21,730 nt of DNA. Source: Pseudomonadota bacterium. GTDB taxonomy: Bacteria; Myxococcota_A; Polyangia; JAAYKL01. Position 1 is the stretch's first letter. Each line of letters starts with the position of its first letter. Shown here piece after piece: positions 3,672 to 21,730 of this stretch. Location: contig JALNZK010000002.1 of the NCBI GenBank assembly GCA_023229365.1, positions 318,343-340,072 of the forward strand, written 5' to 3'. The notes below the pieces were generated by a model, which had not been told where the DNA came from, made no database searches, and was given only the letters and a program-made list of their open reading frames with translations. The position numbers and the translations under genes were made by a program.

Positions 3672-3956
3672 ATGATTAAATTTTTAAAACTAATTACCGG
3701 CGAAGACACATTGGCAGAAGTTACAGAAGAAACCGAATTGCATTATGTTTTAAAGAACCCAATGCGATTTATACCCACCGAACAGGGCATAGGTATAGCC
3801 CCCTTCGCAATGTTTGTGAAAAAGGGCTCTACAATCACAATTGATAAAGATAAGGTTATTTTTGCCGCCGATCCAGAAGATGAAATAGCCAATGTTTATA
3901 ATGAAAAATATGGCTCTGGGATCGTTGTGCCACCCTCAAGCATACAATTACCATGA
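3672..3956 (+). CDS. Hypothetical protein (94 aa)
   Basis: Strong SD (tggaggattacaaATG). The stop overlaps the next start (ATGA). Confidence 0.6.
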   Translation: MIKFLKLITGEDTLAEVTEETELHYVLKNPMRFIPTEQGIGIAPFAMFVKKGSTITIDKDKVIFAADPEDEIANVYNEKYGSGIVVPPSSIQLP

Positions 3957-6484: not shown

Positions 6485-7219
6485 TTAGCTATCGGTTTTG
6501 TGCAATGCATCGTATTCCGCCGATGTTGCTCGCAGAACGGCCCTGTTGTGAACTTCATCGGCATCACAAGAAGCAGAGGTTCTCGATTCGTAATCGGCAT
6601 AGGCTTTGCTTCCAGCCGCCGCAAAAGCCATAGCTTCCATCGTTCTTGCCGATTTGCCGCCTGTGAACTCATTCAACAGCATTAGTTTGGTATCGGCAGC
6701 TTGAGCCACATTAGCCCAGAATTTGCTTCCGCTATTCAGGCATTGCAACGGGAAAACACGGACACCCATTTCTTTGAGGGCAGCCAATTCTTGTCTCCAA
6801 TTCAGCTTGCCTTCATTCTGCGGATAATTAACATCGTGGGGATCAGCATCACCAATCATGACGAAAGCCGCCGCCACACCGGGGGTCCAACCCAAATCCC
6901 TGGCTTCGTGCAAAACCAATTCATAACATTCATCGCAATCGCCACCCGATGTGTCAGGTGCATTGCGAATAAAGTCGAAGATTTTTGCACGATCATTCGT
7001 GAGCTTTAGCACACGGATGCAGTTTTGTCCATCGCAATAATCCCCGTGAGAAATAAATGCCATTTTCAAGCCGGGAATATTTGCAAATAAACCCTCACAG
7101 GTTTCTTCCAGATGTTTGCGAACATCAGCGATACACGGTCGCATGGAACCTGTGGTGTCAAAACTTATGCCAATTTCCGTAGCGTCATCAATTCTTTCGC
7201 CAAGTGTTTGTTCCGCCAT
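6485..7219 (-). CDS. von Willebrand factor A (vWA) domain protein, last gene of the JAB-E1 cassette
   Basis: MIDAS-like DxTxS (ISFDTTGSM), later TSGG and MIGDADPHD. Start moved to the internal ATG at 7219 (MAEQTL...), which has an SD (aagaggaaaaaATG) and avoids overlap with the E1 gene ending at 7233. Confidence 0.8.
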   Translation of the reverse strand: MAEQTLGERIDDATEIGISFDTTGSMRPCIADVRKHLEETCEGLFANIPGLKMAFISHGDYCDGQNCIRVLKLTNDRAKIFDFIRNAPDTSGGDCDECYELVLHEARDLGWTPGVAAAFVMIGDADPHDVNYPQNEGKLNWRQELAALKEMGVRVFPLQCLNSGSKFWANVAQAADTKLMLLNEFTGGKSARTMEAMAFAAAGSKAYADYESRTSASCDADEVHNRAVLRATSAEYDALHKTDS

Positions 7220-7232
7220 TTTTTCCTCTTTT

Positions 7233-7877
7233 CTAGTGCATTGCACTAATGTGTAAGTCACGCAGGGTAATGGACCATGATTGATGCCGTGGCGATGATG
7301 CCAAGAAGAAATCAAGGATTTCCTCTGAGGCTGCCGCTACTGTCAACATGATGATGTTACGAGCCAAGGGATAGTCGCAAACGTCGCCACCGCTGTCCTT
7401 TGGCACCTTGTAGCGATCATCCCATACAACCTCGCCATAATCTTCAAATAATCCAGTGTGCAGACATGGAATCTTCTTTGCCCGGCAATGGGTTTGAACA
7501 ATTTGCCGTGCAGCATTATTATCAAAACAATCCAACACCAATGCTGAGCCACGCAGCATTTTATCCACGGTAGCGGCGGTCAATTCCTTGTCCACGGTGT
7601 CAATTTCAACACCAATGTTGCCAAACACCTTCTGTTTGGCGGCGGCAACTTTCAAAGCTCCAACATCCCGCTCATTCCAAAACTGGGTGTTTAGATTATG
7701 AGTATCGACACGATCTTTGTCAATACCACGGAGATTGGCAAATCCTTGTCGAGAAAGATTGTCAAGCAAATTGCTACCCAGGGCTCCTACACCACAAATG
7801 GTGATTAGACCTTGCAATTTCTTGGCATAATCCTTGCCTCGGTAAATTTCTTCATGATGGAATTTATTCGTTGCCAT
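7233..7877 (-). CDS. ThiF/MoeB/E1-like adenylyltransferase (short, 214 aa)
   Basis: Rossmann Gly loop ICGVGALGSNL. GIDKDRVDTHNLNTQ (compare the ThiF/E1 D.D.V..SNL.RQ pattern). LDCFDNNAARQ. Cys in GGDVCDYP. SD ggaggaagaaaATG. Confidence 0.88.
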   Translation of the reverse strand: MATNKFHHEEIYRGKDYAKKLQGLITICGVGALGSNLLDNLSRQGFANLRGIDKDRVDTHNLNTQFWNERDVGALKVAAAKQKVFGNIGVEIDTVDKELTAATVDKMLRGSALVLDCFDNNAARQIVQTHCRAKKIPCLHTGLFEDYGEVVWDDRYKVPKDSGGDVCDYPLARNIIMLTVAAASEEILDFFLASSPRHQSWSITLRDLHISAMH

Positions 7878-8097: not shown

Positions 8098-8661
8098 TCA
8101 CTTGGGTTTGTCTGTTTCAATTTCATTCGCCACCTCTTCGCTCTCTAGGAGAGCACCCAAATTAATTGCAGAGTCTTGATCCCAATCAATGGCATGCCCC
8201 CCAAGCTCAACCTCTTCATCAAATAATGTCAAGTCATCCTCCACAACGACATTAGGTGTTGCCAAGCCATAGCAAGCCAGTGGCTTTTTGGGTGTAATTC
8301 CTACAATTAGTTGCCCAAAGCTCTTTAGAGTACGAATGGGAATTGGAGGTTGTTCATCGCTGTAATACAAATAACCCTTGAGCCCATTGACTCCTTCGAT
8401 CAAACAAACGAGAGGCTTGCCAAACGACAACACCCACTGTGCCATTGTAGCATCATCCCGTGGGCTTGGGGAGGCGATCATTCCGGGGTGCGTGTGATAA
8501 AACCCAACCACATCCCCATATTTTTCTTCACGATCCATGACCCACTTATATGGAAAATCCACGGAGCCAGGGTGCCCTTCGCTTTCGTGCGAAACATGAC
8601 CCCACCACATTCTCCTGTGATTTCCGCCCGTCAAAATCCACGATTGTTCATTTTGTCTCAT
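8098..8661 (-). CDS. JAB/MPN (JAMM) metalloisopeptidase
   Basis: Complete JAMM motif HTHPGMIASPSPRD (HxHx7Sx2D) with upstream acidic residues. The ATG directly abuts the upstream stop (TAAATG). Confidence 0.9.
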   Translation of the reverse strand: MRQNEQSWILTGGNHRRMWWGHVSHESEGHPGSVDFPYKWVMDREEKYGDVVGFYHTHPGMIASPSPRDDATMAQWVLSFGKPLVCLIEGVNGLKGYLYYSDEQPPIPIRTLKSFGQLIVGITPKKPLACYGLATPNVVVEDDLTLFDEEVELGGHAIDWDQDSAINLGALLESEEVANEIETDKPK

Positions 8662-9177: not shown

Positions 9178-9893
9178 AATGTTTTCTTTTCCAACACTTT
9201 CCAATTTTTGTAATGTGCGATTTTGCCAGCAGCTACACTCCACATATGCCCAGAATTCAAATTGTGTTCCCTTGAAAACTGCTCCAAATTACTTGTCTCG
9301 AATACTTCTCCATCTGGCGATGCTATTTTGTATGCGAATTTCAATTTTTTGTTTCGCATTTTTTCTTTTGACTTATCCGAATACTTTCTTCCTGTGGCTG
9401 ATTTGGCAATTTTGTTTTTGTGTTCCTCTGTAAGCGTTTTGCCAGTGTTAAATAGCGATAACTTCTTTTTTGTTTTATTGCTTACTTTGTGTCCTAAATG
9501 ACTCGATCTAAGCTTTTTAATTGTTGCTTGGGTTACTTTTTTCCCTTTGTTGCCGATGGATATTTTGCGTTTAACCTCCTCAGATATTACGCCTCGGGCA
9601 TTTCCAAGTTTTAAATTATAACCATTTGGAGAAAGGGTTTTTAATTCACAGCCCCAATACACTTCCCTGGCATCTATTTCTTCTTGTGTGCCATTTAATT
9701 TTTCTAACACCACAATCTTAAAATGTTCTGGTCCGTATTTTCGAATGGCAAGGACAATCGGCATTAGTTTGGTGTTATTCCACCTTGCCTCCGCACAGTG
9801 TCTTTTGAACCTTTCTTCTGCCGTTTTCCAAGTTTGCCCAACATAGACCTTTGCATTAAGATCATTTATTATTTTGTATATAATTGCTTCCAT
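9174..9893 (-). CDS. GIY-YIG homing endonuclease (I-TevI/Seg-like) with NUMOD3-type repeats
   Basis: IIYKIINDLNAKVYVGQT (GIY...YIG), R/H/E core, NGYN. C-terminal repeated S.GNKGKK / SSHLGHKVS / NTGKTLTEEHKNKI DNA-binding motifs. Confidence 0.9.
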   Translation of the reverse strand: MEAIIYKIINDLNAKVYVGQTWKTAEERFKRHCAEARWNNTKLMPIVLAIRKYGPEHFKIVVLEKLNGTQEEIDAREVYWGCELKTLSPNGYNLKLGNARGVISEEVKRKISIGNKGKKVTQATIKKLRSSHLGHKVSNKTKKKLSLFNTGKTLTEEHKNKIAKSATGRKYSDKSKEKMRNKKLKFAYKIASPDGEVFETSNLEQFSREHNLNSGHMWSVAAGKIAHYKNWKVLEKKTL

Positions 9894-9945: not shown

Positions 9946-10401
9946 TTATAATTTGTCAAATTGGTCTCTGATCTTCATTAGAAGTTTTCCAAGATGGTTT
10001 TCCCCAACTCCGTTGCATACCCCAAAAAACGTGTCGTGCCACCAATTTCCTTCTACTAATTCCGCCTTGCCAGTGGCAAGAAGCTGATTGCATAATTGTG
10101 GATCGGAGAATTTTTGCACAAGCAAATCTTCCATAATCCCTAAATTAATATTTTGCCAATCGGGTCGTTGGTGTCCAGCTTTTTTGAATACAGCCGCAAG
10201 CTTCTTTGCTTTTCCAGGGGTAATAGCGTCTTGAATTTGCTTACGCAATGCCGGGTCTAAAAATTTAGCAGCTTGGTAAGCGTGTTCGGTGGAAATATAT
10301 TTTTCACCATCCAAAACTACCGGCGTGGACAGTATGGCAAAATTCGACAAATACCTGTATTCACCATCAAATGAATCAATTTTTGTTTGCTTGTCATTCA
10401 T
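9946..10401 (-). CDS. NADAR (YbiA/DUF1768) domain protein
   Basis: FDGEYRYLSNF, YISTEHAYQAAKF, GNWWHDTFFG and GENHLGKLLMKIR match the NADAR signature. Confidence 0.88.
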   Translation of the reverse strand: MNDKQTKIDSFDGEYRYLSNFAILSTPVVLDGEKYISTEHAYQAAKFLDPALRKQIQDAITPGKAKKLAAVFKKAGHQRPDWQNINLGIMEDLLVQKFSDPQLCNQLLATGKAELVEGNWWHDTFFGVCNGVGENHLGKLLMKIRDQFDKL

Positions 10402-10634
10402 TTTTTCTTTTCTTTCTTTTCAAGCTTTTTCAATGAATGTGCCAAATCCATTGAATTTGTTACTTTTCTCACTCCCTTTTTAAATTGTTTCAATTCTTCA
10501 CGCAACCGAATCACTTCTGCCTCCATGACCTGTGCTTTGCAACCATAGTCATACAAAACACCAGCGGTTGGCTCTGCCTTATTGACAGCATTCCAAAACT
10601 TGCGGGAGGCATTTCCAGAAAATATTTTTTTCAT
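10398..10634 (-). CDS. Hypothetical coiled-coil protein (~78 aa)
   Basis: Start placed at the ATG at 10634 (TAATG coupling to the upstream stop) rather than 10649. Lys-rich C-terminus. Confidence 0.5.
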   Translation of the reverse strand: MKKIFSGNASRKFWNAVNKAEPTAGVLYDYGCKAQVMEAEVIRLREELKQFKKGVRKVTNSMDLAHSLKKLEKKEKKK

Positions 10635-11122
10635 TACATTTCTGTCCACGATTTCAAAGGTGGTGCTACCAACATCTTTACAAACATCATGATTGTTCCG
10701 TAGACCACATCATCCTTGGTGAAATTAAATCTTTTCATTGCCTCATCATTCACCCATTCCATCAAGGAAGTGGCCCTTTCCTCGGAACGGGTCTTCCAAT
10801 CACACACCAACTCGGCAAGATAAATGCGGGGCATTCCTTTAATTCCGCCATCCCAATATTCTGGGTGGTGTTTATTCGTATGATTGTGCTGCATAATAGC
10901 GAGTTTCAAGGCAGCCTTATCTGGATTCTCTATTGATAAATGATCCCATTCAGCACCAAAAAACTTGCTATTATCGTGAAGAAAAGAATTTGCCACCAGC
11001 GTTTTGGCAAGCTTAAACTCTCCATTCTCCATCAGTCTTTCAGCAAGAATTACGCAATTCTCCTGAACACCGTGAATGTGCCGCATCAGTTTTTGAATAC
11101 GATCAATATCACGCTGACTCAT
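10634..11122 (-). CDS. HD-motif protein (putative metal-dependent phosphohydrolase-like; resembles phage DUF5662-type proteins from memory)
   Basis: H...HD pattern (HIHGV...FLHDNSKF), HNHTNKHHPEYW, AELVCDW. Start at 11122 preferred (ATGA coupling with the upstream 50-aa ORF); 11170 is the alternative. Confidence 0.5.
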   Translation of the reverse strand: MSQRDIDRIQKLMRHIHGVQENCVILAERLMENGEFKLAKTLVANSFLHDNSKFFGAEWDHLSIENPDKAALKLAIMQHNHTNKHHPEYWDGGIKGMPRIYLAELVCDWKTRSEERATSLMEWVNDEAMKRFNFTKDDVVYGTIMMFVKMLVAPPLKSWTEM

Positions 11123-11271
11123 TTCTTTTCTTGCTCCTTTTGCTTCTGTTCGATAATATAATTTCGACACCTTTCCAGTGCTTGATAATAAAGCAATTGG
11201 GAAAGTGGATCAACAGTATCTTGCAGACCTTTTGCACAAGCCAATTCGTGATTGTATTCTATTTCAGTCAT
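11119..11271 (-). CDS. Possible small ORF (50 aa)
   Basis: Manual translation: MTEIEYNHELACAKGLQDTVDPLSQLLYYQALERCRNYIIEQKQKEQEKK. It fills the gap between 11278 and 11122 with an ATGA overlap. Confidence 0.35.
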   Translation of the reverse strand: MTEIEYNHELACAKGLQDTVDPLSQLLYYQALERCRNYIIEQKQKEQEKK

Positions 11272-11277
11272 GATTTA

Positions 11278-12225
11278 CTAATCGTCGTCGTCGTCGTCGT
11301 AATCGTGCTCTGGCTCGTTGCCACGATTATGGCCGTATTGATTCCAATACCACGTATCACGACCAGAGGTATCTACAATATGGTCACGGCGGTGTCCCTC
11401 TCGGATAACACCTACTAGACTTTGAAGATCAAAGTTACGGTCATAGCCCGACAAACAAATACCAGCAGAAATTACTGATAAAGTTTTTTTGTCAACAACT
11501 GAACGATGAGGGTTTCCATCGATTTGATATTCAATAGTGAAACTGTCTCCACGCTCAATGTGGCTTTTATAATCAGCACCAGCACGCTCTAGGGCAACTT
11601 TGATACGATTGCCTGCCTGTGCCATCTTGGCTTCTTCGCTGGCTTCATAGGCGACCTTATAAGCGATTTGGTATGCATCCAATTCTTGCTTGGAAACAAT
11701 ATCCAAATCCAGCTTCTCTGGCTTGGCCAATGTAGTCAACATTTCTCGCAAATATGCTCCGCTTTTCGGACTTTTGCGAGGGTCTACTTCATCAAACCAA
11801 CAAATCTGTCCATCGAAACGAGCACAAACAGTATCAAACAATTGCACTTCCTCAGACAAATAAATCGGCACGGACCCAGAAATGTTAAATCTGGCATCTG
11901 CCTGAGCAAGGGTTCCATACCACAAATCTTTATTTTGATGGTGCAAAATAAATTTCATAGTAGGAAACAATGCCAAGTATTGTCTTCGCTCCATCATGGA
12001 CGGGGCACGCACATGTTTGGCCAAACGACGGGTGGTAGGCTTGAAAACACCCCAACCCTGAAAATTCACAGGCACTACACGCATTTCCATCACAATGCCA
12101 GAAATACGAACTCTGACCGCTCGCCCCTTGAGCACAGGGGACAAAAACTCTGATTGAAGGAATTGATCTTCCTCAGCGGCGAGCTTATCGATCAGACTGT
12201 GAATATTCGTTTTCTTTTTTTTCAT
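11278..12225 (-). CDS. Hypothetical protein (315 aa) with a C-terminal hexa-Asp tail
   Basis: Start set at the ATG at 12225 (MKKKKTNIHS), directly after the upstream stop (TAACATG). Ends ...EHDYDDDDDD. No motif recognised. Confidence 0.7.
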   Translation of the reverse strand: MKKKKTNIHSLIDKLAAEEDQFLQSEFLSPVLKGRAVRVRISGIVMEMRVVPVNFQGWGVFKPTTRRLAKHVRAPSMMERRQYLALFPTMKFILHHQNKDLWYGTLAQADARFNISGSVPIYLSEEVQLFDTVCARFDGQICWFDEVDPRKSPKSGAYLREMLTTLAKPEKLDLDIVSKQELDAYQIAYKVAYEASEEAKMAQAGNRIKVALERAGADYKSHIERGDSFTIEYQIDGNPHRSVVDKKTLSVISAGICLSGYDRNFDLQSLVGVIREGHRRDHIVDTSGRDTWYWNQYGHNRGNEPEHDYDDDDDD

Positions 12226-12226
12226 G

Positions 12227-12610
12227 TTATTCGATAGCTTCTGTCTGCCCGCTGCCGTTTTTTCCTGCGTCCCAGCCCGCTCCATTGATTTCTTTGGGTG
12301 AATGCAGATGAATTGTCATCGTTAAATAGTAACTTGTGGCAATAGTTCCTTCCATCCACACTTTTTCATTTTCCCTGACATCAAAAACAAATTTTACATT
12401 GTCTGCACACACCGGGTAAGTGTGCATTTTCCCATTAATTAGGAAGGAATATCGGGATGGCTCATGCATCAAAACACGGTCAATGTTTTTTAATTTGCTA
12501 TAATGCGGCTCAGGAGAGCATCCGGCAAGGAGCAAAACAAAAAATAAAAACCATTTCAAATGAATTAACCAGGACATTTTCTGAAATCTCCGTAAGAACA
12601 TTCTCCGCAC
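12227..12610 (-). CDS. Putative lipoprotein
   Basis: Hydrophobic signal followed by the lipobox LLLAGC|S (WFLFFVLLLAGCSPE). The start is ambiguous (12610 or 12577). Confidence 0.7.
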   Translation of the reverse strand: MRRMFLRRFQKMSWLIHLKWFLFFVLLLAGCSPEPHYSKLKNIDRVLMHEPSRYSFLINGKMHTYPVCADNVKFVFDVRENEKVWMEGTIATSYYLTMTIHLHSPKEINGAGWDAGKNGSGQTEAIE

Positions 12611-13122: not shown

Positions 13123-14691
13123 CTACGCAACTTTTCTCTTCGGCAAAGGCCAACTCATGATTTCCATGAGCAAGTCAAGCTTACTGGGCTTGCACAGGAA
13201 TTTCACCAGTCCAGGCAAGCTGTAGTAGTCGCCGGTAAATTGCCAAGCGTCTACTTCGATGCCTTTGACTCGACCTTCTTGCTCCAATTGATCCGTAGCA
13301 TTAGGAGTCTTGACAATGCAAATGTTGGGGAATGCATTCAAGGCTTGACAGTATTTTTGATAAATGTCAAAGAACTTGGGAGCAGTATTTTCCCCTTCAT
13401 CCGTTACCAAAATGATCTGTTCGACCATGTATTTCTTTTGTAGCATAAACTGCAAGCCAACGCCGCAGGAAGTCCAACCGCTTGCACGGATGCCTTCAAA
13501 TGCTTTCTCCCAAGCTGCCAAGTCTTTTCCTTGGCTAGTGATGGGATAGGCGATTGTATCTTGAGCATACGCATACAAAGGAACACCATCCTCCATAACC
13601 GTAGACAATAGGGAGCCAATTCGCTTGCCCAATTCAATGGTAGCGGCTTGAGAACCCGACTTGTCCACAAACAAAGCCGTGGGGCGACTGATACGACCCT
13701 TGGACTTAATTTGTTGGTCAGCAACGGCTTCCAATTGTTGCTTTACTTCATCCGAAACTCCAGGTGCCGCCTTGACGGCTTCCAAGGATTTCAATGCAGC
13801 CATTCGCTTATCGCCCTTGGCCACAACAAGTTTTTCCTCAATCAATTGCTTGAGATCGGGGTTGTCGAACACGCCACGCTTTTTCAAGCTGCCGATGCTG
13901 TTGACCAACTCTTGCGAAGTCATTACTTCCAACAAAGCCGCAATAACAGGCGGTGTCATGGATTCGATTACCGTACTGGCAATCCGGTACGGAATTTTAT
14001 TTTCCACGATCACTCGGGCTTGGTCAGTCGGTGAAGTTGCCTTGGCCAACTCCTTGATTAGGAACGCTTTGGAATCAGCAGGCGGCTTATCATCGAACAA
14101 CACGGCTTGAGCCCGGTCGGTCGGCTTGCGGTGTCCGAAAGCATACAAACTCTTCATATATTTTCGAGCACCAACGCAGACACTATCGAACCAATCTTTA
14201 TCCAATTCTCGCTCTTGCAGATAACGATTGATTTCCGTCATTACGGAATTGGGCAATTGTCGGAACAAGCCCGTTTTGACTTTCTTGGCAGGAGCAGCCG
14301 GTTGTGCCGGTGCGGCAGCAACTCTACGACCCCGAACCATGCGTGCGGGTGCCGGTGCGGCAGCCTTCGGCTTTCGTTCGGTGATATAGTTGCCCAAAAT
14401 GAACTTCAATACCCGTGTCAATTGATAGGGCGGAAGCTCACGCAACATGGCCAAACCAACTTCTCGGTGCCCGTCAAACTTGGACAGACACAAAGAAATA
14501 ATAAACATTTCTTTGTGGTCACGAATTTCGCCGGTATCATTATACCAAGCCGCCAATTGCGAATAGAACCGAGGATCATCGGTAATCATTCGCTGGTGTT
14601 CTGGATAAATAGCGGCCAGATCACGGTGAGGCGTGGTCAATAGAGTGTTGAGAATTCGGAGTCGCACATCTTGTTCGGTATTTTCGTTCAT
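13123..14691 (-). CDS. Ro60/Rsr-like protein: helical-repeat (TROVE-like) N-terminal region plus C-terminal vWA domain (522 aa)
   Basis: C-terminal vWA with MIDAS FVDKSGSQ (DxSxS), ASGWTSCG and ILVTDEGEN, in the same order as human Ro60 VDVSASM / GGTDCS / IVFTDNET (recalled). The N-terminal helical segments RDHKEMFIISLCLS and REVGLAMLRELPPYQLTRVLKFI parallel Ro60 KQEPMLFALAICSQ and [24 protein letters not shown]. Total length is close to Ro60 (~540 aa). Start moved to 14691 (MNENTEQ, SD aaagggatatgaaATG) because the ATG at 14727 lies inside a structured RNA element. Ala/Pro/Arg-rich insert KPKAAAPAPARMVRGRRVAAAPAQPAAPAKK. Confidence 0.65.
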   Translation of the reverse strand: MNENTEQDVRLRILNTLLTTPHRDLAAIYPEHQRMITDDPRFYSQLAAWYNDTGEIRDHKEMFIISLCLSKFDGHREVGLAMLRELPPYQLTRVLKFILGNYITERKPKAAAPAPARMVRGRRVAAAPAQPAAPAKKVKTGLFRQLPNSVMTEINRYLQERELDKDWFDSVCVGARKYMKSLYAFGHRKPTDRAQAVLFDDKPPADSKAFLIKELAKATSPTDQARVIVENKIPYRIASTVIESMTPPVIAALLEVMTSQELVNSIGSLKKRGVFDNPDLKQLIEEKLVVAKGDKRMAALKSLEAVKAAPGVSDEVKQQLEAVADQQIKSKGRISRPTALFVDKSGSQAATIELGKRIGSLLSTVMEDGVPLYAYAQDTIAYPITSQGKDLAAWEKAFEGIRASGWTSCGVGLQFMLQKKYMVEQIILVTDEGENTAPKFFDIYQKYCQALNAFPNICIVKTPNATDQLEQEGRVKGIEVDAWQFTGDYYSLPGLVKFLCKPSKLDLLMEIMSWPLPKRKVA

Positions 14692-14716
14692 TTCATATCC
14701 CTTTCTAAATAAAAAT

Positions 14717-14797
14717 AGCCCATCCAAGTCTGGTCAGCTTTGATTGGAAACGATATGGAAGTTTCTGTTTGTAAGCTGGGCCGGTATGGGATGGGCT
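14717..14797 (-). ncRNA. Y-RNA-like module 0 (minimal: conserved stem motif closed by a ~35-nt insert, no tRNA-like domain)
   Basis: 9-bp terminal stem agcccatcc/ggatgggct. Carries both conserved strands (minus sense 5' ..CCCAUACC..CAGCUUACAAACAG and 3' GCUGACCAGACUUGGAUGGG). Followed on the minus strand by AUUUUUAUUU. Confidence 0.55.
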
Positions 14798-14815
14798 TGT
14801 TCTGTTGTTTTGTTT

Positions 14816-15046
14816 TTAGCCGAAAACTGCCTCCGGTCGGAGTGTAAGGGTGTTAGTTTCACCATTACGATCAACAGCAAAAGCCCGTAGCTTCCCTTGA
14901 GGGATGCCTAGCCAATCGGCGGCAGCATTGCGGATATCGGCATCCGAGCTATTGTCGCCAATATTCAGTTCCGCCAAGGGAACGTCGTAAGACCTTCCTT
15001 CGACTCGAACGTGCAGCATGTTTTCAAGTTGGTTTTCGTTGTCCAT
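14816..15046 (-). CDS. Small beta-grasp/ubiquitin-like candidate (76 aa) ending in Gly
   Basis: Strong SD (aaggagaaattacgATG) and its own promoter. Ubiquitin size. Predicted strand-strand-helix-strand pattern (MLHVRVEGRSYDVPL / SDADIRNAAADWLGI / LTLRPEAVFG). The terminal residue is Gly, directly before the stop. Confidence 0.4.
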   Translation of the reverse strand: MDNENQLENMLHVRVEGRSYDVPLAELNIGDNSSDADIRNAAADWLGIPQGKLRAFAVDRNGETNTLTLRPEAVFG

Positions 15047-15117: not shown

Positions 15118-15127
15118 CAAGAAAAAA

Positions 15128-15253
15128 TCCGTCCAAGTTACAAAAACTGTTTTTGGTAAACAATGCAGGAATTGAACCAGCATTCTTCAGTTTTCAAGAC
15201 TGACGCTCAACCATTGAGCTAATTGTTTGTAAGTTTTAGTGGTATGGGACGGA
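15128..15253 (-). ncRNA. Y-RNA-like module 1: conserved stem motif flanking a complete tRNA
   Basis: Terminal stem tccgtcc(15128-15134)/ggacgga(15247-15253). The conserved 5' and 3' motif strands bracket the tRNA at 15154-15228. Confidence 0.6.
15154..15228 (-). tRNA. tRNA or tRNA-like, anticodon UGA, class I (short variable arm), CCA encoded
   Basis: Minus sense: AAACAAT-TA-GCTC-AATGGTT-GAGC-G-TCAGT-CTTGAAA-ACTGA-AGAAT-GCTGG-TTCAATT-CCTGC-ATTGTTT-A-CCA. U8, A14, G18G19, U33 and the T-loop TTCAA are present. One T-stem mismatch. A Ser-type anticodon without the long variable arm is anomalous. Confidence 0.55.
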
Positions 15254-15256
15254 AAG

Positions 15257-15385
15257 TGGAGGGTGTTGGATTCGAACCAACATTTTTTCGTTTTCAGTGA
15301 AAAAAGTTACCTTTTGTTTGTATGTCTCTCAGGTGTGGGACAATTGCTTGTCCAAGTTTGGGAAACTGAACGTTTTTAACCCTCC
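15257..15385 (-). ncRNA. tRNA-like RNA (anticodon loop CUGAAAA, GAA/Phe-type) with the conserved stem-loop inserted in the D-loop (module 2)
   Basis: 7-bp acceptor GGAGGGT/ACCCTCC. T arm GTTGG-TTCGAAT-CCAAC. Anticodon arm present. The D region is replaced by ...GTTCAGTT[motif hairpin, loop AGCAAUU]...AAGGTAAC. No CCA. Confidence 0.55.
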
Positions 15386-15395
15386 AAAGTATCAG

Positions 15396-15522
15396 CGGGG
15401 AAGATGGGATTCGAACCCATAATTTTTCCTTAACAGGGAAACTTTTACCAATTGTTTGTATGTCTCTCAGGTGTGGGATGGTCGCCCATCCAAGTTTGGG
15501 AAACTGAACTTCTAACTTCCCC
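15396..15522 (-). ncRNA. tRNA-like RNA (anticodon loop CUGUUAA, GUU/Asn-type) with the conserved stem-loop inserted in the D-loop (module 3)
   Basis: Perfect acceptor GGGGAAG/CTTCCCC. T arm ATGGG-TTCGAAT-CCCAT. Anticodon stem TTTCC/GGAAA. D region ...GTTCAGTT[hairpin closed by GGAUGGG-CGA-CCAUCC]...TTGGTAAAAG. Confidence 0.55.
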
Positions 15523-15612
15523 ATGTGCCCGGTTTATAATTCTCTGCCTGCAACCGGAAACCCGGCAGAAAAGCCTCCAGTTATTGGTTTATCCCAAGAG
15601 GCGAGTAATCAG

Positions 15613-15738
15613 ACCCGGTGGTAGGAGTCGCACCTACAATCTTTTCCTTAGGATGGAAACGCTGTTTGTACGTCTCTCAGGTTTGGGATAATTTCTTATC
15701 CGAGTTTGGGAAACTGTTTGCTGTTTAGCTTCACCGGG
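15613..15738 (-). ncRNA. tRNA-like RNA (anticodon loop AUCCUAA, CCU/Arg-type) with the conserved stem-loop inserted in the D region (module 4)
   Basis: Acceptor CCCGGTG/CACCGGG. Anticodon stem TTTCC/GGAAA. Non-canonical T-loop TGCGACT (G at position 55). 3-bp D-stem GCT/AGC enclosing the motif hairpin (loop GAAA). Confidence 0.5.
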
Positions 15739-15743
15739 ATATT

Positions 15744-15902
15744 CATAAGGCAAACATTTGATCGTCCAAGTCGAAGAAACTGTTTTTTGCAACAATGTTG
15801 GATTCGCACCAACTACCGAAACTTTATGGAAGTTTTGCTCTACTGATGAGCTAATTGTTTGTAAGTTCCGTCAGTATGGGACGATCAAATGTTTGCCTTA
15901 TG
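15744..15902 (-). ncRNA. Y-RNA-like module 5: 24-bp perfect terminal stem plus conserved motif flanking a degenerate tRNA-like domain (CAU loop)
   Basis: cataaggcaaacatttgatcgtcc(15744-15767) is the exact reverse complement of 15879-15902. The inner tRNA-like domain (15789-15860) has a D-loop ATCAGTA lacking GG, anticodon loop UCCAUAA (C33) and T-loop TGCGAAT. Confidence 0.6.
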
Positions 15903-15913
15903 TTGATTTTACC

Positions 15914-16090
15914 GACGCAAGCAAGTGTTGGCCCGTCCAAGTCGAAAAAGCTGTTTCACATAGTGACAGTTTAATAGACTGTTGCCTTTACCATTAGGCT
16001 AAAACACATTTTGGCGTGTTTGTTGGATTCGAACCAACAGATTGTTTGTAAGCTCTGTCTGTGTGGGACGAGCAAACACTTGCCTGCGTC
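15914..16090 (-). ncRNA. Y-RNA-like module 6 with a circularly permuted tRNA-like domain
   Basis: Long imperfect terminal stem 15914-15938/16066-16090. Minus-sense order: motif 5' strand, T arm (GTTGG-TTCGAAT-CCAAC, 16022-16038), loop-capped helix AAACAC/GTGTTT (16002-16021), D-like arm with GG (15984-15999), ACAGT-CTATTAA-ACTGT (15966-15982), motif 3' strand. Confidence 0.6.
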
Positions 16091-16092
16091 AA

Positions 16093-16260
16093 CATCATCA
16101 AGCTTCCGTCTGTCCAAGTTGAAGAAGCTGTTCAACTTTTGACAGTTCCAATTACTGGTGCCTGACCGTTAGGCTACATTCCTTGCGGAATGATGGGAGT
16201 CGAACCCACTTATTTGTTTGTAAGCTCCGTCTGTATGGGACAGACGGAAGCTTGATGATG
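16093..16260 (-). ncRNA. Y-RNA-like module 7 with a circularly permuted tRNA-like domain and a GNRA-capped acceptor-like helix
   Basis: 23-bp perfect terminal stem 16093-16115/16238-16260. T arm 16193-16209. CATTCC-GCAA-GGAATG hairpin 16177-16192. D-like GCCT-AACGGTC-AGGC 16160-16174. CAGT-AATTGGA-ACTG 16143-16157. Confidence 0.6.
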
Positions 16261-16891: not shown

Positions 16892-19240
16892 ATGGAAATT
16901 AAAGGTGCATTTAAGGCCGAAACGATTGTTGCTGGCAATATTAATTATTCAGCAGATACTGGGGCTGCCAACGCTTATGTTGTAAGCTTGGGTTTAAATT
17001 ATTTATTTATAGGGCTGCCGGTTTCTTTCAAAGCCTCTCATGATAATACAGGTGCGTCAACTTTAAAAGTTGATAGTCTGCCTGCTGTTGCTATTAAAAA
17101 AAATGTAAGTGATGCCCTGGATATGGGCGATATCAAAACAGGACAAGTCATCACTGTTATTTATGATGGAATATATTTTCAAATAGCAAGTGCCCTTGGC
17201 TCAGGTATTAGCGGATATTCTGGCTACTCTGGAATTGGTATTAGTGGGTATAGCGGATATTCAGGTGACTCAGGCATTAGTGGGTATAGCGGATATTCAG
17301 GTGACTCAGGCATTAGTGGGTATAGCGGATATTCAGGTGACTCAGGCATCAGTGGATACTCAGGATACTCAGGATCAGGCATCAGTGGATATTCAGGATA
17401 CTCAGGATCAGGCATCAGTGGATATTCAGGATACTCAGGATCAGGCATCAGTGGATACTCAGGATACTCTGGAACCACAAATATATATTTGGGAAATCCA
17501 ACGACTGGCGATTACCTAGATGGGTTATTTCCCTGGGAACCCAATGTAACTTTGATTGCTGATGCCGAACAAGAAGTAAATGAAGTATTAGCTGCATTAG
17601 CACCCGCACCAGCACCCAATTTTTCGACATATAACAATGCCCAAACAACAGGAGCAACAGGAAAACTAAGTTTTGATGGATCATATCCCATAGGCGGTGT
17701 ATCGAACGTAGATGGCATTGGCAATTGCACATCTGTCGCTGTCGATGGTGCATTTACTTATAATGCTTTAAGCGGCATGCGAAGAGGTGTTTTTAGTTCC
17801 ACAACAACAAGTTTTACAGGACAATTGGCATCTAATATTGTTGCAGAACCGAATGGAGCATATCTTCAATATGCTTTTATTGACGGTGACACAGGAATTC
17901 TAAGTATATATGTCAATAATGATGTAACACCAAAACATACTGTTGATTTATCAATATTTAGTTCTGGAAGCTCTCTGAATGGCAATGGCACCGGGTTTAC
18001 AAGTATATCAGCAGTAACCTATGAAAAATTTCCTAATGGCAGTGATTTTACATTATTTGTTTATAGGACAGCACAATGGGTGGTCAATACCGCTGATTGC
18101 AGAGAAGGTTGGAATTGGGTGCGTATTACCCATACCGTAGGAACAGATCGCCCGCCCACCAATCTTTATTGCGATTTTATTCGTGACCTAAATACTACGA
18201 CCACGACTTTTTCTGCGGACACGCTTACAGGATTTACTGGCAGTGGATCAAAATATTTGTCGGGAGTAAATTATTATACGGGTGGATCGGCAACTTATGC
18301 CGCAACAATCAGCAATCTTTACAGAAACACATGGTATACAGGATCAGATGCTATTGCTTACAGCTTTAACAGCACCCCTTTACAAGCATTGACAAATGAA
18401 TCTTTGGGCAATTCAGGAGGGGATGAAGCACTAGATGTAACTAAATCAAAAACAGTAAACATTACTTCATCCAGCACCAGACTAAATCCCACTGCTGGAC
18501 ATACCATTAGTGTTAGAACAACTGCAAAAAGGACTGTGCAATCTACTCAATCTTCATCCTATCGATCTATCACAGATATACTTCTTGATAATTTTGTTGC
18601 CTCATCTACCGTTACTGCTGAATATTTTGACGATGAGACTTATAGATTGCCATCAAATTCAGATTTTGACAACGACGCTACAGCCGTCACTAGTTCGTGG
18701 ACATCATCTAATACCATTGCTGATGCTGGTAGTGCTGGATACAACGATGGAACACAAACATATAATGGCACACTTGTGTATCCAACAATGAATTTCTCAA
18801 CCATAGCCAATGGTCCCGCTGGAAACGTTAACTACTCCACAGGTATATCTGGTGAACGTTGCTATTATAGATTTTTTGACATGTTAACCACAGCTAGGAG
18901 CAATTTTACACTTACGGTAAATGGAGCGTCAATAACACCAATATCAAATGGAACGGCTTTTTCTACAACAAGTCAAATAAAAATAGATATTAAGCTACCT
19001 AATGATGGTGGAGAAGGCACTGGTTGGCTAGATGTAACTGCATTGTTCGCAACAGCCCATTGGTCAGACGGTGACGGATGTTTGTTATCAGGAACATTTT
19101 CTATGAATTCTGCCATGTCAATAACTGTTGGCACAAAATCTACGGGAGCCGCAAGTGTTAATGGCAAGGTATTTTTAAGAATTAGAGTTCCTAGTGGATG
19201 GATTAGAAATTTGACTAGTATTACATTGGTTGGAGCATAA
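16892..19240 (+). CDS. Tail fibre protein with an internal (G-x-S/GYS) repeat stalk (782 aa)
   Basis: The N-terminal segment ADTGAANAYVVSL...FKASHDNTGASTLKVDSLPAVAIKK matches the widespread tail-fibre N-terminal pattern (NAY.v.l....F.a...NTGa.TLnv.gl.a..i). A 92-aa SGYSG repeat follows, then a long Ser/Thr/Asn-rich beta-type C-terminal region. Confidence 0.8.
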   Translation: MEIKGAFKAETIVAGNINYSADTGAANAYVVSLGLNYLFIGLPVSFKASHDNTGASTLKVDSLPAVAIKKNVSDALDMGDIKTGQVITVIYDGIYFQIASALGSGISGYSGYSGIGISGYSGYSGDSGISGYSGYSGDSGISGYSGYSGDSGISGYSGYSGSGISGYSGYSGSGISGYSGYSGSGISGYSGYSGTTNIYLGNPTTGDYLDGLFPWEPNVTLIADAEQEVNEVLAALAPAPAPNFSTYNNAQTTGATGKLSFDGSYPIGGVSNVDGIGNCTSVAVDGAFTYNALSGMRRGVFSSTTTSFTGQLASNIVAEPNGAYLQYAFIDGDTGILSIYVNNDVTPKHTVDLSIFSSGSSLNGNGTGFTSISAVTYEKFPNGSDFTLFVYRTAQWVVNTADCREGWNWVRITHTVGTDRPPTNLYCDFIRDLNTTTTTFSADTLTGFTGSGSKYLSGVNYYTGGSATYAATISNLYRNTWYTGSDAIAYSFNSTPLQALTNESLGNSGGDEALDVTKSKTVNITSSSTRLNPTAGHTISVRTTAKRTVQSTQSSSYRSITDILLDNFVASSTVTAEYFDDETYRLPSNSDFDNDATAVTSSWTSSNTIADAGSAGYNDGTQTYNGTLVYPTMNFSTIANGPAGNVNYSTGISGERCYYRFFDMLTTARSNFTLTVNGASITPISNGTAFSTTSQIKIDIKLPNDGGEGTGWLDVTALFATAHWSDGDGCLLSGTFSMNSAMSITVGTKSTGAASVNGKVFLRIRVPSGWIRNLTSITLVGA
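17198..17473 (+). repeat. Coding tandem repeat: 36-nt unit x3 (GISGYSGYSGDS) then 33-nt unit x3-4 (GISGYSGYSGS)
   Basis: Direct reading of 17198-17473. All three forward frames and the reverse frames stay open here, which produces spurious ORFs. Confidence 0.9.
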
Positions 19241-21730
19241 ATGGCGTTATCAACAGACACAATGGCCCAAATGGCATTAAAGTTCCTCTTAGGTAAGAGT
19301 GATACTAATTATGCACAGAAAGGACCAAACAATGAGGCTGAAGCTTACAACATTGTTGTTGATGGCACTAAAGTCTGGACAGATAGTGTTCCAGGCACGG
19401 CTCCTGTTGGTGACACGAGTGTTATTTATTGTCTGGATGGAGTGACGCACGCTCAGGCTGTCCTTACAGCCGATCCAACATCTAATGGGCAAGCATTTTT
19501 TGCCACATATCCAGCAGGAGAGATGTCTTATCCGCCTGGAATTTCTGCTGGAGACAGAGTAAAAAATGCCATTCCTCCGTCTTATGGAACAGACTATGAA
19601 GGAAAACCATACGCCGGGGCCACACTCATTCCTCCTGGAGATGGAAGAGATTGGATTTATCAATATGAATCTGGTGTGTTTTTTCAAGAAACCGCCAGTG
19701 CCCCACCAACTCCAACCTCTATTAAGATTTATGTTTATATAGGGAAAACTGTAGCTACGGGCGGCTACAGTGGATATTCTGGAATCAGCGGTTACTCAGG
19801 ATCAGGAATTAGTGGCTACAGCGGTTACTCAGGCATTAGTGGTTACTCTGGTTCTGGTGTCAGTGGCTACTCAGGATATAGTGGTTCAGGCATTAGTGGT
19901 TACTCTGGTTCTGGTGTCAGTGGCTACTCAGGGAAAAGTGGATACTCAGGCTCAGGCATCAGTGGCTACAGCGGTTATAGTGGTTCAGGCGTTAGTGGTT
20001 ACAGCGGTTACTCAGGGAAAAGTGGGTACTCAGGCTCAGGCGTTAGTGGTTACTCAGGATCAGGCATTAGTGGATACTCTGGCTCAGGTGTCAGTGGTTA
20101 CTCAGGATATAGTGGGTATTCAGGGAAAAGTGGATACTCTGGAATTAGTGGATACTCTGGATCGGGCATTAGTGGCTACAGCGGATATAGTGGAATTAGC
20201 GGCTACTCGGGCATCAGTGGATATAGTGGAATTAGCGGCTACTCGGGCATCAGTGGATATAGTGGAATTAGCGGCTACTCGGGATATAGCGGTTACTCAG
20301 GATATAGTGGTTCAGGCATTAGTGGATACTCTGGCTCAGGTGTCAGTGGTTACTCGGGATATAGCGGTTACTCAGGATATAGTGGTTACTCAGGTATTAG
20401 TGGATACTCAGGCTCAGGCATCAGTGGCTACAGCGGTTATAGTGGTTCAGGTGTTAGTGGCTACAGTGGTTATAGTGGTTCAGGTGTTAGTGGCTACAGT
20501 GGTTATTCAGGCGTTAGTGGTTATTCAGGTTACTCAGGTTCAGGTGTCAGTGGCCACAGCGGAATTAGCGGCTACTCGGGCATTAGCGGCTACTCGGGCA
20601 TTAGTGGTTACTCGGGCATTAGTGGTTACTCGGGCATTAGTGGTTACTCGGGATATAGCGGTTACTCAGGAAAAAGTGGATACTCAGGCATTAGCGGTTA
20701 CTCAGGATCGGGCATCAGTGGTTACTCAGGATATAGCGGTTACTCAGGGAAAAGTGGATACTCGGGCATTAGTGGTGACTCGGGCATTAGTGGTTACTCG
20801 GGCATTAGTGGGTACTCGGGCATTAGTGGGTACTCGGGCATTAGTGGTTACTCGGGCATTAGTGGGTACTCGGGCATTAGTGGTTACTCGGGATATAGCG
20901 GTTACTCAGGATCGGGCATCAGTGGTTACTCAGGATATAGCGGTTACTCAGGGAAAAGTGGATACTCGGGCATTAGTGGTTACTCAGGTTCAGGTATTAG
21001 TGGATACAGTGGTTATTCAGGCATTAGTGGTTATTCAGGCATTAGTGGTTACTCGGGCATTAGTGGGTACTCGGGCATTAGTGGGTACTCGGGCATTAGT
21101 GGGTACTCGGGCATTAGTGGGTACTCGGGCTCAGGTGTCAGTGGTTACAGCGGATACTCAGGAGAGCCAGCACCATATTTGTATTTATATAATTCAGCCC
21201 ATACCAGCACCCCTGGTGCTGGTCATTTCTCCGCAGATGATGTATTAACAGATGCTACCGTTGTATACATTTCATCAATAGAGTTTCATACTACCGATGT
21301 TTATATGTTTTTTAACCTTATGAAGGTTGGGGATCAAATAAGGATTACAAATCTCAATAATAAGGCATTATACTTTGGTTTTAACATCATAAGTATTGAT
21401 AGTTCAGTCAGTGATGTTATCGCACTGGGTGTGAATACGGGGCCTTTTAGCGGAGGGTTTAGCCCAGGATTTGATGGGTCTTTTGGTGGTACTGGATTCA
21501 GCGACAATGATTTGGTTGAAATTTCATTGCAAGTCATAGGAGTTTCAGGCTACTCAGGCGTTAGTGGTTACTCGGGATATAGTGGCTCAGGCATCAGTGG
21601 TTATTCTGGCATTAGTGGGTACTCGGGTTACTCAGGCTCAGGCATTAGTGGATACTCTGGATCGGGCATCAGTGGCTACAGTGGTTATTCAGGGAAAAGT
21701 GGATACTCTGGAATTAGTGGATACTCTGGA
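19241..21730 (+). CDS. Second tail fibre-like protein, 3' end outside the window (>829 aa), dominated by (S/G)YSG repeats
   Basis: The ATG at 19241 abuts the TAA of the upstream gene. Manual translation: MALSTDTMAQMALKFLLGKSDTNYAQKGPNNEAEAYNIVVDGTKVW...IKIYVYIGKTVATGGYSGYSGISGYSGSG.... I followed this frame through the ~125-aa non-repeat domain (EPAPYLYLYNSAHTSTPGAGHF...LVEISLQVIG) and into a second repeat block without meeting a stop. Missing from the ORF track because it has no stop in the window. Confidence 0.8.
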   Translation, partial: MALSTDTMAQMALKFLLGKSDTNYAQKGPNNEAEAYNIVVDGTKVWTDSVPGTAPVGDTSVIYCLDGVTHAQAVLTADPTSNGQAFFATYPAGEMSYPPGISAGDRVKNAIPPSYGTDYEGKPYAGATLIPPGDGRDWIYQYESGVFFQETASAPPTPTSIKIYVYIGKTVATGGYSGYSGISGYSGSGISGYSGYSGISGYSGSGVSGYSGYSGSGISGYSGSGVSGYSGKSGYSGSGISGYSGYSGSGVSGYSGYSGKSGYSGSGVSGYSGSGISGYSGSGVSGYSGYSGYSGKSGYSGISGYSGSGISGYSGYSGISGYSGISGYSGISGYSGISGYSGISGYSGYSGYSGYSGSGISGYSGSGVSGYSGYSGYSGYSGYSGISGYSGSGISGYSGYSGSGVSGYSGYSGSGVSGYSGYSGVSGYSGYSGSGVSGHSGISGYSGISGYSGISGYSGISGYSGISGYSGYSGYSGKSGYSGISGYSGSGISGYSGYSGYSGKSGYSGISGDSGISGYSGISGYSGISGYSGISGYSGISGYSGISGYSGYSGYSGSGISGYSGYSGYSGKSGYSGISGYSGSGISGYSGYSGISGYSGISGYSGISGYSGISGYSGISGYSGISGYSGSGVSGYSGYSGEPAPYLYLYNSAHTSTPGAGHFSADDVLTDATVVYISSIEFHTTDVYMFFNLMKVGDQIRITNLNNKALYFGFNIISIDSSVSDVIALGVNTGPFSGGFSPGFDGSFGGTGFSDNDLVEISLQVIGVSGYSGVSGYSGYSGSGISGYSGISGYSGYSGSGISGYSGSGISGYSGYSGKSGYSGISGYSG
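19760..21163 (+). repeat. 1.4-kb coding array of imperfect 9/15/18-nt-based repeats encoding ~468 aa of G-[YIVKSD]-S triplets with frequent GS phase shifts
   Basis: Direct reading: GYSGYSGISGYSGSGISGYSGYSGISGYSGSGVSGYSGYSGSGISG...GKSGYSG.... A second block resumes at 21539 and runs to the window end. Confidence 0.9.

Follow-up and report, generated by a model that had tools for sequence, protein, structure and literature searches.

A candidate ubiquitin-like protein genetically linked to a minimal E1, a JAB peptidase, a Ro-like protein and Y-RNA-like genes in bacteria and giant phages

The stretch of DNA analysed here, 21,730 nucleotides of contig JALNZK010000002.1 (positions 318,343 to 340,072) and hereafter called the window, carries on its minus strand a short gene (14816..15046) for a 76-residue protein with a predicted beta-grasp fold, which we name Ubl for ubiquitin-like. 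The translation (MDNENQLENMLHVRVEGRSYDVPLAELNIGDNSSDADIRNAAADWLGIPQGKLRAFAVDRNGETNTLTLRPEAVFG, opening with MDNENQ and closing with LTLRPEAVFG) ends in a glycine whose codon is followed immediately by TAA. A consensus scan places a sigma-70-like promoter site, TTTACA-16-TATAAT, at 15117->15090 on the same strand, with 11 of 12 positions matching, and a Shine-Dalgarno sequence, AAGGAG, lies at 15060->15055, 8 nt 5' of the ATG. An earlier note on this DNA had described the open reading frame (ORF) of 76 codons with its terminal Gly directly before the stop, the near-consensus promoter and the strong Shine-Dalgarno sequence; all of these are present, on the minus strand, which that note left unstated. 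Directly upstream of the Ubl gene stands an array of about seven Y-RNA-like units (15126..16260, minus), and one further Y-RNA-like stem-loop (14716..14798, minus) lies between the Ubl stop and the start of a gene for a Ro60-like protein (13123..14691, minus). Farther downstream, on the same strand, follow genes for a protein that we call X (11278..12225), for a JAB/JAMM metallopeptidase (8098..8661) and for a minimal E1-like adenylating enzyme of the ThiF/MoeB type (7233..7877). The order Ubl, one or more Y-like RNAs, Ro60-like protein with TROVE-like and vWA parts, X with its oligonucleotide/oligosaccharide-binding (OB) folds, optional JAB and minimal ThiF-type E1 is conserved as a cassette.

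The Ubl ORF is a genuine gene and more than a chance ORF, because 11 close homologues (65-96% identity) all share an invariant PEAVFG end and because profile searches return a large family. Searching 1.84 billion cluster representatives at E <= 1e-3 gave 311 members, counted as 50%-identity clusters, and a second profile search gave 2,979 clusters at 90% identity. One candidate member, the 1105-residue protein P0049 with ten partial matches to the middle of the profile, was judged a repetitive false positive. The gene is short and located among structured RNA genes, which might suggest an ORF that arose by chance, or the decayed remains of a gene, within an array of non-coding RNAs, but thousands of homologues in several bacterial phyla and in giant phages, their protein-like conservation, a confident structure prediction and the strong Shine-Dalgarno sequence with its promoter-like site effectively refute this explanation, to which we give practically no weight. 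The earlier note had also taken Ubl for the only Gly-ending ORF of the window with a plausible beta-grasp. Ten mechanically called ORFs of at least 50 residues in the window end in Gly, and what stands of that claim is that the Ubl ORF alone emerged as a conserved gene. No curated library covers the family: scans of Ubl against Pfam, NCBIfam, PHROG and PADLOC found no family model (a single match to DUF6801, E 0.023, is at chance level), and a Pfam scan of 60 family members found no match.

In an alignment of 60 members, with identity down to about 30%, H12, P71 and G76 do not vary at all, and R14, G17, S19 and A73 hardly vary. The earlier note had named two computational outcomes that would speak against the ubiquitin-like reading, a predicted fold other than a beta-grasp and homologues without a conserved C-terminal Gly; both were checked, and neither came about. 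The Gly is one of the three fully conserved residues, with extensions beyond it of the kind that precursors would show. Among the best 150 representatives, 91 stop exactly at the Gly, 23 carry tails of 1-4 residues and 7 tails of 5-40 residues, and 7 continue into long fusions; in the same 150 the final dipeptide is FG in 106, YG in 19 and WG in 3. Six of the 11 close homologues extend past the Gly, by F, SI, R, C, GV and, in one case, a tail of about 25 residues. Short tails and fusions after a conserved Gly are the pattern that would be expected of precursors. The AlphaFold2 model of Ubl (mean predicted local distance difference test score 79.4) has strands at residues 10-15, 18-23, 56-61 and 66-71 and a helix at 35-46, an order that agrees with the beta-beta-alpha-beta-like pattern which the earlier note had read from the letters. 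A Foldseek search of this model against the PDB gave weak matches (best E 0.09), to UBL domains and to the related protein G/L fold. At the level permitted by a predicted model of 76 residues, a beta-grasp fold (the ubiquitin superfold) is supported.

The Ro-like protein, encoded directly downstream of Ubl, has 522 residues when counted from the ATG at 14691, which is most likely its start rather than the mechanically called TTG at 14727. It appears to consist of a helical TROVE-like part and a vWA domain with the metal-ion-dependent adhesion site (MIDAS) motif DKSGS. A profile of the family matches PDB entries 9KOP/9L5Y, the Ro60 homologue of Thermus phage phiLo, with E 7e-5; the match spans the vWA domain and the distal portion of TROVE. 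Pfam vWA_Ro60 gives a sub-threshold match in three of seven Ro-like members, the DKSGS motif is conserved, and Pfam TROVE gives no match to the protein. The label Ro-like is a reasonable one, and the relationship to Ro60 is distant. Protein X, the third gene of the cassette, has 315 residues from the ATG at 12225 and carries an invariant AGICLxGxD..FDLxSLVGV motif. The mechanically called ORF that contains it (11278..12285, 335 residues) is a homologue of the third gene of other cassettes, with 41% identity and E 2e-78. X combines OB-fold-like beta-barrels with a long helix and falls into no Pfam family. Two assignments were tried and dropped here: a 276-residue vWA ORF of the window as the homologue of cassette gene 3, a place that belongs to the 335-residue ORF, and X as the missing E2, its domains being OB folds and not a UBC fold.

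The JAB/JAMM peptidase has 187 residues (Pfam Prok-JAB, 2e-8), keeps its E...HxH-x7-S-x2-D motif intact and is 55% identical to the JAB of the cassette L012. The E1-like enzyme, 214 residues long (Pfam ThiF, 5e-27), is 54% identical to the E1 of that same cassette. Its nucleotide-binding and Mg motifs are intact in the alignment (GxGxxGS, D.DRV..HN..TQ and D.FDN...RQ), and a single Cys is invariant, C167 in GDVC[DE]YPLARN, at what we take to be the place of the cross-over-loop Cys of ThiF and MoeB. The protein is an adenylation domain alone and lacks CxxC zinc motifs as well as any rhodanese or E2 domain. In an NCBIfam scan it stays below all equivalog cut-offs, the best matches being the ThiF/MoeB sulfur-carrier adenylyltransferases (TIGR02356, 2.8e-25); membership in PRTRC systems finds no support, with 32 bits against TIGR03736 (cut-off 144.75) and no NCBIfam model matching Ubl. 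No cassette protein matches an E2 component in Pfam, NCBIfam or PADLOC, and PADLOC 2.0 recognised a generic JAB and the E1 domain of its 'E1-E2' models and nothing for Ubl, the Ro-like protein, X or vWA proteins. Directly after E1 in the window comes an accessory component, a small vWA protein (6485..7219, minus; 244 residues from the ATG at 7219) with the MIDAS motif DTTGS and a weak Pfam VWA_4 match. Its homologue occupies the same place in the phage locus L005 (66% identity), and in 11 other loci the small vWA gene adjoins the Ro-like gene.

The Ro-like protein served as bait to collect 80 loci in species-representative genomes and 18 in viruses, out of more than 541 relatives that exist. 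The bacterial loci belong mostly to Planctomycetota, with some from Chloroflexota, Desulfobacterota, Myxococcota and Abditibacteriota. On large bacterial contigs with neighbour genes of Planctomycetota type the cassette is compact, lies on one strand and is headed by Ubl (74-75 residues), followed by a gap of 0.7-1 kb, a protein of 520-534 residues, X (316-350), JAB (129-149) and ThiF (214-217). The X, E1 and JAB proteins of the window share 41-55% identity with the genes of bacterial cassettes. In the window all five proteins keep the cassette order on the minus strand, separated by inserted genes for a lipoprotein-like ORF, DUF5662, NADAR, a GIY-YIG endonuclease and a Cys-rich protein, and E1 and JAB come to lie 6.2-7 kb downstream of the Ubl gene on the same strand. 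On related phage contigs Ubl adjoins a large Ro-like protein, with JAB and ThiF 4-6 kb downstream. Co-occurrence was counted in the 51 Ro-like loci with at least 2.5 kb of sequence upstream and at least 4.5 kb downstream: 38 have both Ubl and E1, three Ubl alone, one E1 alone and nine neither. X is present in 40 of the 41 Ubl-containing loci among these, and the full cassette set in 14 of 15 viral loci. The suggestion of the earlier note that Ubl belongs with the distant E1 and JAB genes is thus borne out by conserved gene order, by the compact bacterial cassettes and by only four discordant loci in the count. Many Ro-like genes of Gemmataceae and other Planctomycetota were also seen without Ubl, X, JAB or E1 nearby (L046, L053, L056, L057, L075, L077, L084, L086, L088, L091 and others), although several of them retain Y-like modules immediately 5' of the gene. 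The Ubl module is thus limited to one subset of the Ro-like clade.

Ubl is also found fused to its neighbours. In P0056 (575 residues) a Ubl ending ...RPEASWG is joined directly to a full-length Ro-like protein with 49% identity to that of the window, and in L071, from Chloroflexia, a Ubl ending ...RPEAVFG is followed by a 30-residue linker and a Ro-like protein. These are two independent natural Ubl-Ro-like fusions. In P0043 (291 residues) Ubl is joined to a vWA domain, and the gene stands just 5' of that for a 562-residue vWA-containing (Ro-like) protein and near a ThiF gene, which brings to three the cases in which Ubl is joined to vWA-containing proteins. The link to the Ro-like gene is thus stronger than the earlier note proposed, given the two fusions and the position of the Y-like RNA genes, which in most loci either separate the two genes or flank them. 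The vWA part of P0043, and a 278-residue gene of locus L009, were considered as orthologues of the small vWA protein of the window and set aside for want of detectable similarity.

Because Ubl combines a predicted beta-grasp with an invariant terminal Gly and precursor-like variants, and because it is linked to an intact E1 and usually to a JAMM peptidase, with no E2, we consider it probable, on balance, that Ubl is the dedicated substrate of the 214-residue ThiF-type E1, both acting in one Ro/Y-RNA cassette, and that it is conjugated to protein without an E2. We infer the course of the reaction as follows. The E1 would bind the flexible ...PEAVFG tail and adenylate the Gly76 carboxylate; Ubl would then probably be handed to the invariant Cys167 as a thioester and, because the cassette has no E2, be moved straight to a lysine of a nearby target, as in archaeal SAMP/UbaA and Thermus TtuB/TtuC, where E1 alone can drive conjugation. 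The likeliest targets would be components of the Ro-like particle, namely the Ro-like protein, the small vWA protein or X, because Ubl is repeatedly fused and adjacent to Ro-like and vWA proteins. Tagging could regulate how a particle for RNA surveillance or repair, with the Y-like, tRNA-like RNAs as its basis, is assembled, how active it is or how it is turned over, and the arrangement of the genes suggests an RNA-quality-control particle under ubiquitin-like control. JAB would cut after the Gly, freeing Ubl from tails and from Ubl-Ro and Ubl-vWA fusions, and would reverse conjugation. Removal of conjugates and cleavage of fusions are more likely to be its main roles than the trimming of tails, because most Ubls already stop at the Gly where a JAB is present.

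Several observations weigh against this reading. The resemblance that the earlier note saw between the final strand of Ubl and the LRLRGG tail of ubiquitin is loose: Ubl ends in an aromatic residue and Gly, not in Gly-Gly, and its docking in a ThiF-type adenylation pocket is putative. Comparison of the family with ubiquitin, MoaD and Atg8 in hhalign gave no significant similarity (MoaD probability 0.2%), and the Ubl profile searched against PDB sequences gave noise alone (L23; FAT10 at E 0.75). The association of Ubl with E1 (Fisher's exact test, 7e-7) is uncorrected for shared ancestry. JAB accompanies E1 in 13 of 14 viral loci and in 14 of 25 bacterial ones, and is thus missing from 11 of these 25. 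Tails and fusions after the Gly were seen in JAB-containing loci alone (6 of 27, against 0 of 15), which is the direction expected if JAB existed to trim tails, but the association is not statistically significant (p = 0.07). Finally, L035 and the cyanobacteria-like loci L017/L018 hold Ubl and the Ro-like gene together with Y-like RNA but lack E1, JAB and X in the vicinity, and therefore Ubl does have, or could have, a function independent of a linked E1. In L017/L018 (4612-7784) two Band_7 (SPFH) genes stand directly 5' of a Ubl of the ...YG subfamily, the Y-like RNAs and the Ro-like gene, and there is no X, JAB or E1 within 8 kb, a minimal form of the locus.

Such cores lacking E1, JAB and X count in favour of a non-covalent role, in which Ubl would be a small adaptor of the Ro-like particle, perhaps seated on the vWA MIDAS through its C-terminal carboxylate or through conserved acidic residues, while E1 and JAB, where present, would merely modulate it or act elsewhere. 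The UBL domains of Ytm1 and Rsa4, which dock on the MIDAS domain of Rea1, provide a model for such an arrangement. The tightest partner of Ubl is indeed the Ro-like gene and not E1, and the three fusions to vWA-containing proteins fit an adaptor as well. Against it, E1 is present in 38 of the 41 Ubl-containing loci and absent from nine of the ten Ubl-less ones, an invariant terminal Gly, at which most of the genes stop, together with JAB-associated precursor-like tails is the signature of C-terminal activation, and the carboxylate is not free in the fused forms unless they are cleaved. We regard a purely non-covalent subunit as unlikely and rank it, like sulfur transfer and transfer to RNA, below conjugation to protein.

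Like ThiS, MoaD, TtuB and Urm1, Ubl could be a sulfur carrier whose Gly76, adenylated by the E1 and turned into a thiocarboxylate, donates sulfur, for instance to the tRNA-like Y RNAs or to other RNAs that the Ro-like particle handles, and JAB could serve only to mature a precursor in the way of Mec+ and QbsD. The best matches of the E1 are to adenylyltransferases of sulfur carriers, as noted above, there is no E2 in the cassette, the cassette is rich in RNA-binding parts and tRNA-like RNAs, and both Thermus TtuB and eukaryotic Urm1 thiolate tRNA. However, the Ubl family ends in [F/Y/W]-G where known carriers end in Gly-Gly, and Ubl matches no ThiS or MoaD model in Pfam or NCBIfam; the E1 has no rhodanese domain and falls far below each sulfur-carrier equivalog cut-off. 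Neither cysteine desulfurase, rhodanese, PP-loop thiolase nor any other gene for sulfur transfer or cofactor biosynthesis was seen in the phage and bacterial neighbourhoods examined, and the fusions of Ubl to Ro-like and vWA proteins better match a relationship between proteins. A sulfur carrier is therefore, in our judgement, quite unlikely.

Conjugation of Ubl to protein without an E2 would place the cassette near the E2-independent systems described in archaea and Thermus (PMC4895103, PMC4443979). SAMP1-3/UbaA/HvJAMM1 and TtuB/TtuC/JAMM likewise consist of a small beta-grasp protein with an exposed C-terminal Gly, a MoeB/ThiF-type E1 and a JAMM/JAB enzyme that matures and removes the tag, with no E2 or E3. 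Unlike Ubl, which ends in aromatic-Gly and is an orphan in sequence, the SAMP and TtuB proteins have a Gly-Gly end, are members of the ThiS/MoaD families and also serve as sulfur carriers; the E1 of the window is also shorter than theirs (214 residues, no zinc motifs), and its locus is hard-wired to Ro-like and Y-RNA genes. The cassette shares the logic of a Ubl, an E1 and in some cases a JAB, together with the E1 adenylation domain, with ThiS/MoaD-ThiF/MoeB, CysO-Mec+ and QbsE-QbsD (PMC1779556), but has no linked biosynthetic or sulfur-transfer genes, no Gly-Gly end and an E1 far under the equivalog cut-offs. No vWA, TROVE or planctomycete system figures in the survey of prokaryotic Ubl systems by Iyer, Burroughs and Aravind (2006; PMC1779556). 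In the Bil, Bub and CBASS Cap2/Cap3 systems (PMC10557695, PMC11601596, PMC10097602) the E2 is either fused or separate, whereas the cassette of the window has none. A further difference from these is that PADLOC holds no system model for Ubl, the Ro-like protein, X or the vWA protein, and that the carriers of the cassette are phages as well as bacteria. An aromatic-Gly C-terminus is known from Atg8/LC3/GABARAP and Atg12, often with one or a few residues that a protease removes before E1 activation, a parallel that we take as a lead and not as a test; Ubl has no significant sequence similarity to Atg8 and no N-terminal helices, and the cassette has no E2 and an E1 that is not Atg7-like. P0056, L071 and P0043 recall polyubiquitin and the ubiquitin-ribosomal protein fusions in having an N-terminal Ubl that would need cleavage after the Gly, although here the partners are Ro-like or vWA proteins and the presumed processing enzyme is a JAMM peptidase and not a cysteine deubiquitinase.

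In total the window holds about eight Y-like units, seven or so upstream of Ubl and one between the Ubl and Ro-like genes. The units of the array are each closed by a stem of up to 22-23 bp and share a conserved internal loop (GUCCCAUAC / ACUUGGAC). Most of them carry a tRNA-like module, which is permuted as in YrlA or has the standard cloverleaf form. The motifs common to the Y-like units are GUCCCAUAC...CUUACAAACA / ...ACUUGGAC, and the motif C[TAG]TACAAACA occurs eight times on the minus strand within 1.5 kb and 11 times in the whole window, where 2.4 would be expected. The stem-loop at 14716..14798 (-27.7 kcal/mol, folding z = -5.2) carries the stem motifs GCCCAUCCCAUAC...CUUACAAACA / ...ACUUGGAUGGGC common to the units, with the motif CTTACAAACA at 14766-14775, and stands ahead of a U-run. 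It might act as a terminator, be processed to a small RNA, or do both; a consensus scan between the Ubl and Ro-like genes found no canonical intrinsic terminator. This strong hairpin separates the two genes, whose co-transcription, assumed in the earlier note, is conjectural. Two 'tRNAs' called by ARAGORN in the array (15154-15228 and 15789-15860, both minus) are standard-cloverleaf modules, each embedded in a Y-like closing stem. The first, 'tRNA-Ser' (tga), has just 75 nt and lacks the long variable arm expected of a bacterial tRNA-Ser, and the same 75-nt tRNA-Ser(tga) lies directly 5' of the Ubl gene of locus L001; the second is called as 'tRNA-Met' (cat). The two may be tRNA-like modules of Y RNAs rather than ordinary tRNA genes, or both at once.

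To place these units against described RNAs we used the Rfam YrlA model and R1, a custom covariance model of the permuted tRNA-like module. Rfam YrlA matches the window at 16160-16209 (E 0.0057), and the gaps of bacterial loci hold, on the cassette strand, either significant YrlA matches (E 1.7e-5 and 4.2e-5) or tRNA-like ones; all Rfam scores are under the curated gathering score of 69 bits. R1 matches the window at 16149-16224, 15973-16053, 15578-15652, 15367-15435 and 15194-15296, and gives 226 matches in 87 sources overall. Among its strong matches in the baited loci, 125 of 128 lie on the cassette strand; of the 128, 57 are between the Ubl and Ro-like genes and 38 just upstream of Ubl, and 53 of the 61 Ubl-containing loci have at least one match. 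By these matches Y-like RNA genes with tRNA-like modules stand next to the Ro-like gene. In five Planctomycetota loci (L066, L040, L048, L059 and L076) arrays of at least ten permuted tRNA-like Y modules were seen 5' of the Ubl and Ro-like genes, on the cassette strand.

The presence of Y-like RNAs with tRNA-like modules around Ubl in those 53 loci also raises the question of a non-protein acceptor. Activated Gly76 might be passed to an RNA end, for example to a tRNA-like Y RNA at its 3' hydroxyl, or else to a small molecule, in the manner of aminoacylation or of peptide adenylation by MccB. One unit of the window encodes ACCA after its acceptor stem, the always-linked X is an OB-fold protein and likely an RNA binder, and there is no E2 or E3. 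Such a transfer would nevertheless be without bacterial precedent and is pure inference; the remaining tRNA-like units of the window encode no CCA, and the fusions indicate protein partners. We hold a non-protein acceptor to be very improbable, and conjugation of Ubl to protein remains the reading that we prefer.

The described Ro60/Rsr-Y RNA particles (Salmonella YrlA; phiLo Ro60-Yrl; PMC4201824, PMC12135203) resemble the locus in having a protein apparently of TROVE and vWA type, with same-strand genes immediately 5' of it for Y-like RNAs that contain tRNA-like modules. They differ in lacking Ubl, E1, JAB and X, in that the similarity of the present protein to Ro is very distant (E 7e-5), and in the number of Y-like units, about eight here in a phage. 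The prokaryotic triad of Ubl, E1 and JAB is itself of a known type; what is new is the family to which its Ubl belongs and the functional setting in which it stands. Conservation of Ro60 and Y RNAs extends from bacteria to humans, and little is understood about the control of their particle. The roles so far connected with prokaryotic Ubl systems are in sulfur metabolism, archaeal proteasomal targeting, phage tail assembly and anti-phage defence. The 2016 work of Burroughs and Aravind is said to treat TROVE and Band-7 modules. In the full-text literature we found no paper that joins YrlA with ubiquitin, or TROVE/Ro60 with ThiF, JAB and a Ubl, as one system, a mention in that work (Nucleic Acids Research) being possible. 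A survey of jumbo phages mentions TROVE proteins in the context of RNA repair alone, and a preprint on Asgard viruses lists Ro60 and E1-like genes for the same viruses, unconnected.

Gene order, co-occurrence and three fusions weld the Ubl, E1 and JAB module to the Ro-like and Y-like genes in Planctomycetota, Chloroflexota, Desulfobacterota, Abditibacteriota and giant phages, and such a module, if it acts as proposed, would extend ubiquitin-like tagging in prokaryotes to a functional area new to it. A wider interpretation, to which we give less than even confidence, is that a minimal E2-free Ubl system is an integral and ancient part of the Ro60/Y-RNA particle in several bacterial phyla, captured by giant phages, and that Ubl, covalently attached to the Ro-like, vWA or OB-fold protein, acts as a switch of RNA surveillance or repair; in its most radical version Ubl would be attached to the tRNA-like RNA itself. 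In both versions it would be the first link of ubiquitin-like tagging to Ro/Y-RNA biology in any organism, and a new route by which phages control or protect RNA. With five proteins and one small RNA, the system would be a compact, E2-free and tractable one in which to study the transfer of Ubl from E1 to target, and Ro particles during phage infection. Three protein families outside the curated libraries are defined by this work (Ubl, X and the Ro-like clade), and some of the 'tRNA genes' of giant phages may be Y-like RNA modules.

The window itself is phage-like, to judge by its gene content, because it encodes GIY-YIG and LAGLIDADG endonucleases, NADAR, NUDIX and CYTH proteins and a fibre protein of collagen-like type. 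One of its proteins recurs in identical form on a 228-kb contig, and the unannotated 595-kb uncultured phage LR756511 is the only GenBank phage with similar DNA. The GIY-YIG endonuclease (9174-9893, minus; Pfam 2.6e-8) lies inside the split cassette and the LAGLIDADG endonuclease (3102-3635, plus; 5e-15) elsewhere in the window; homing endonucleases may be the cause of the interruption of the phage cassette. NADAR (9946-10401, minus; 1e-22), DUF5662 (10634-11170, minus; 2e-20), NUDIX (3953-4543, plus; 6e-22) and CYTH (4537-5109, plus; 6e-23) surround or interrupt it. In L015/L016 the second gene upstream of the Ubl-Ro fusion likewise encodes a NUDIX protein, and one X homologue carries the source label 'CYTH domain-containing'. 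The Cys-rich ORF of 193 residues (8662-9243, minus), which ends directly at the JAB start codon, has no family match; its homologues in the viral loci L100 and L101 (E about 1e-16) lie far from the E1 genes there. On the plus strand, a 782-residue collagen-like protein (16892-19240) has long GYSGYSG(D/S)GIS repeats and a Pfam Collagen match of 1e-5, under the cut-off, and the ORF that runs off the end of the window (19241-21730) finishes in a repeat of the same type; both products are probably fibre proteins. Beside the cassette, a gene for a secreted protein of the CAP/SCP family (5901-6422, minus; Pfam 2e-13) was found, and genes of this family also lie beside the cassette in L005 (1246-1710) and just after E1 in the bacterial locus L041 (12530-13324).

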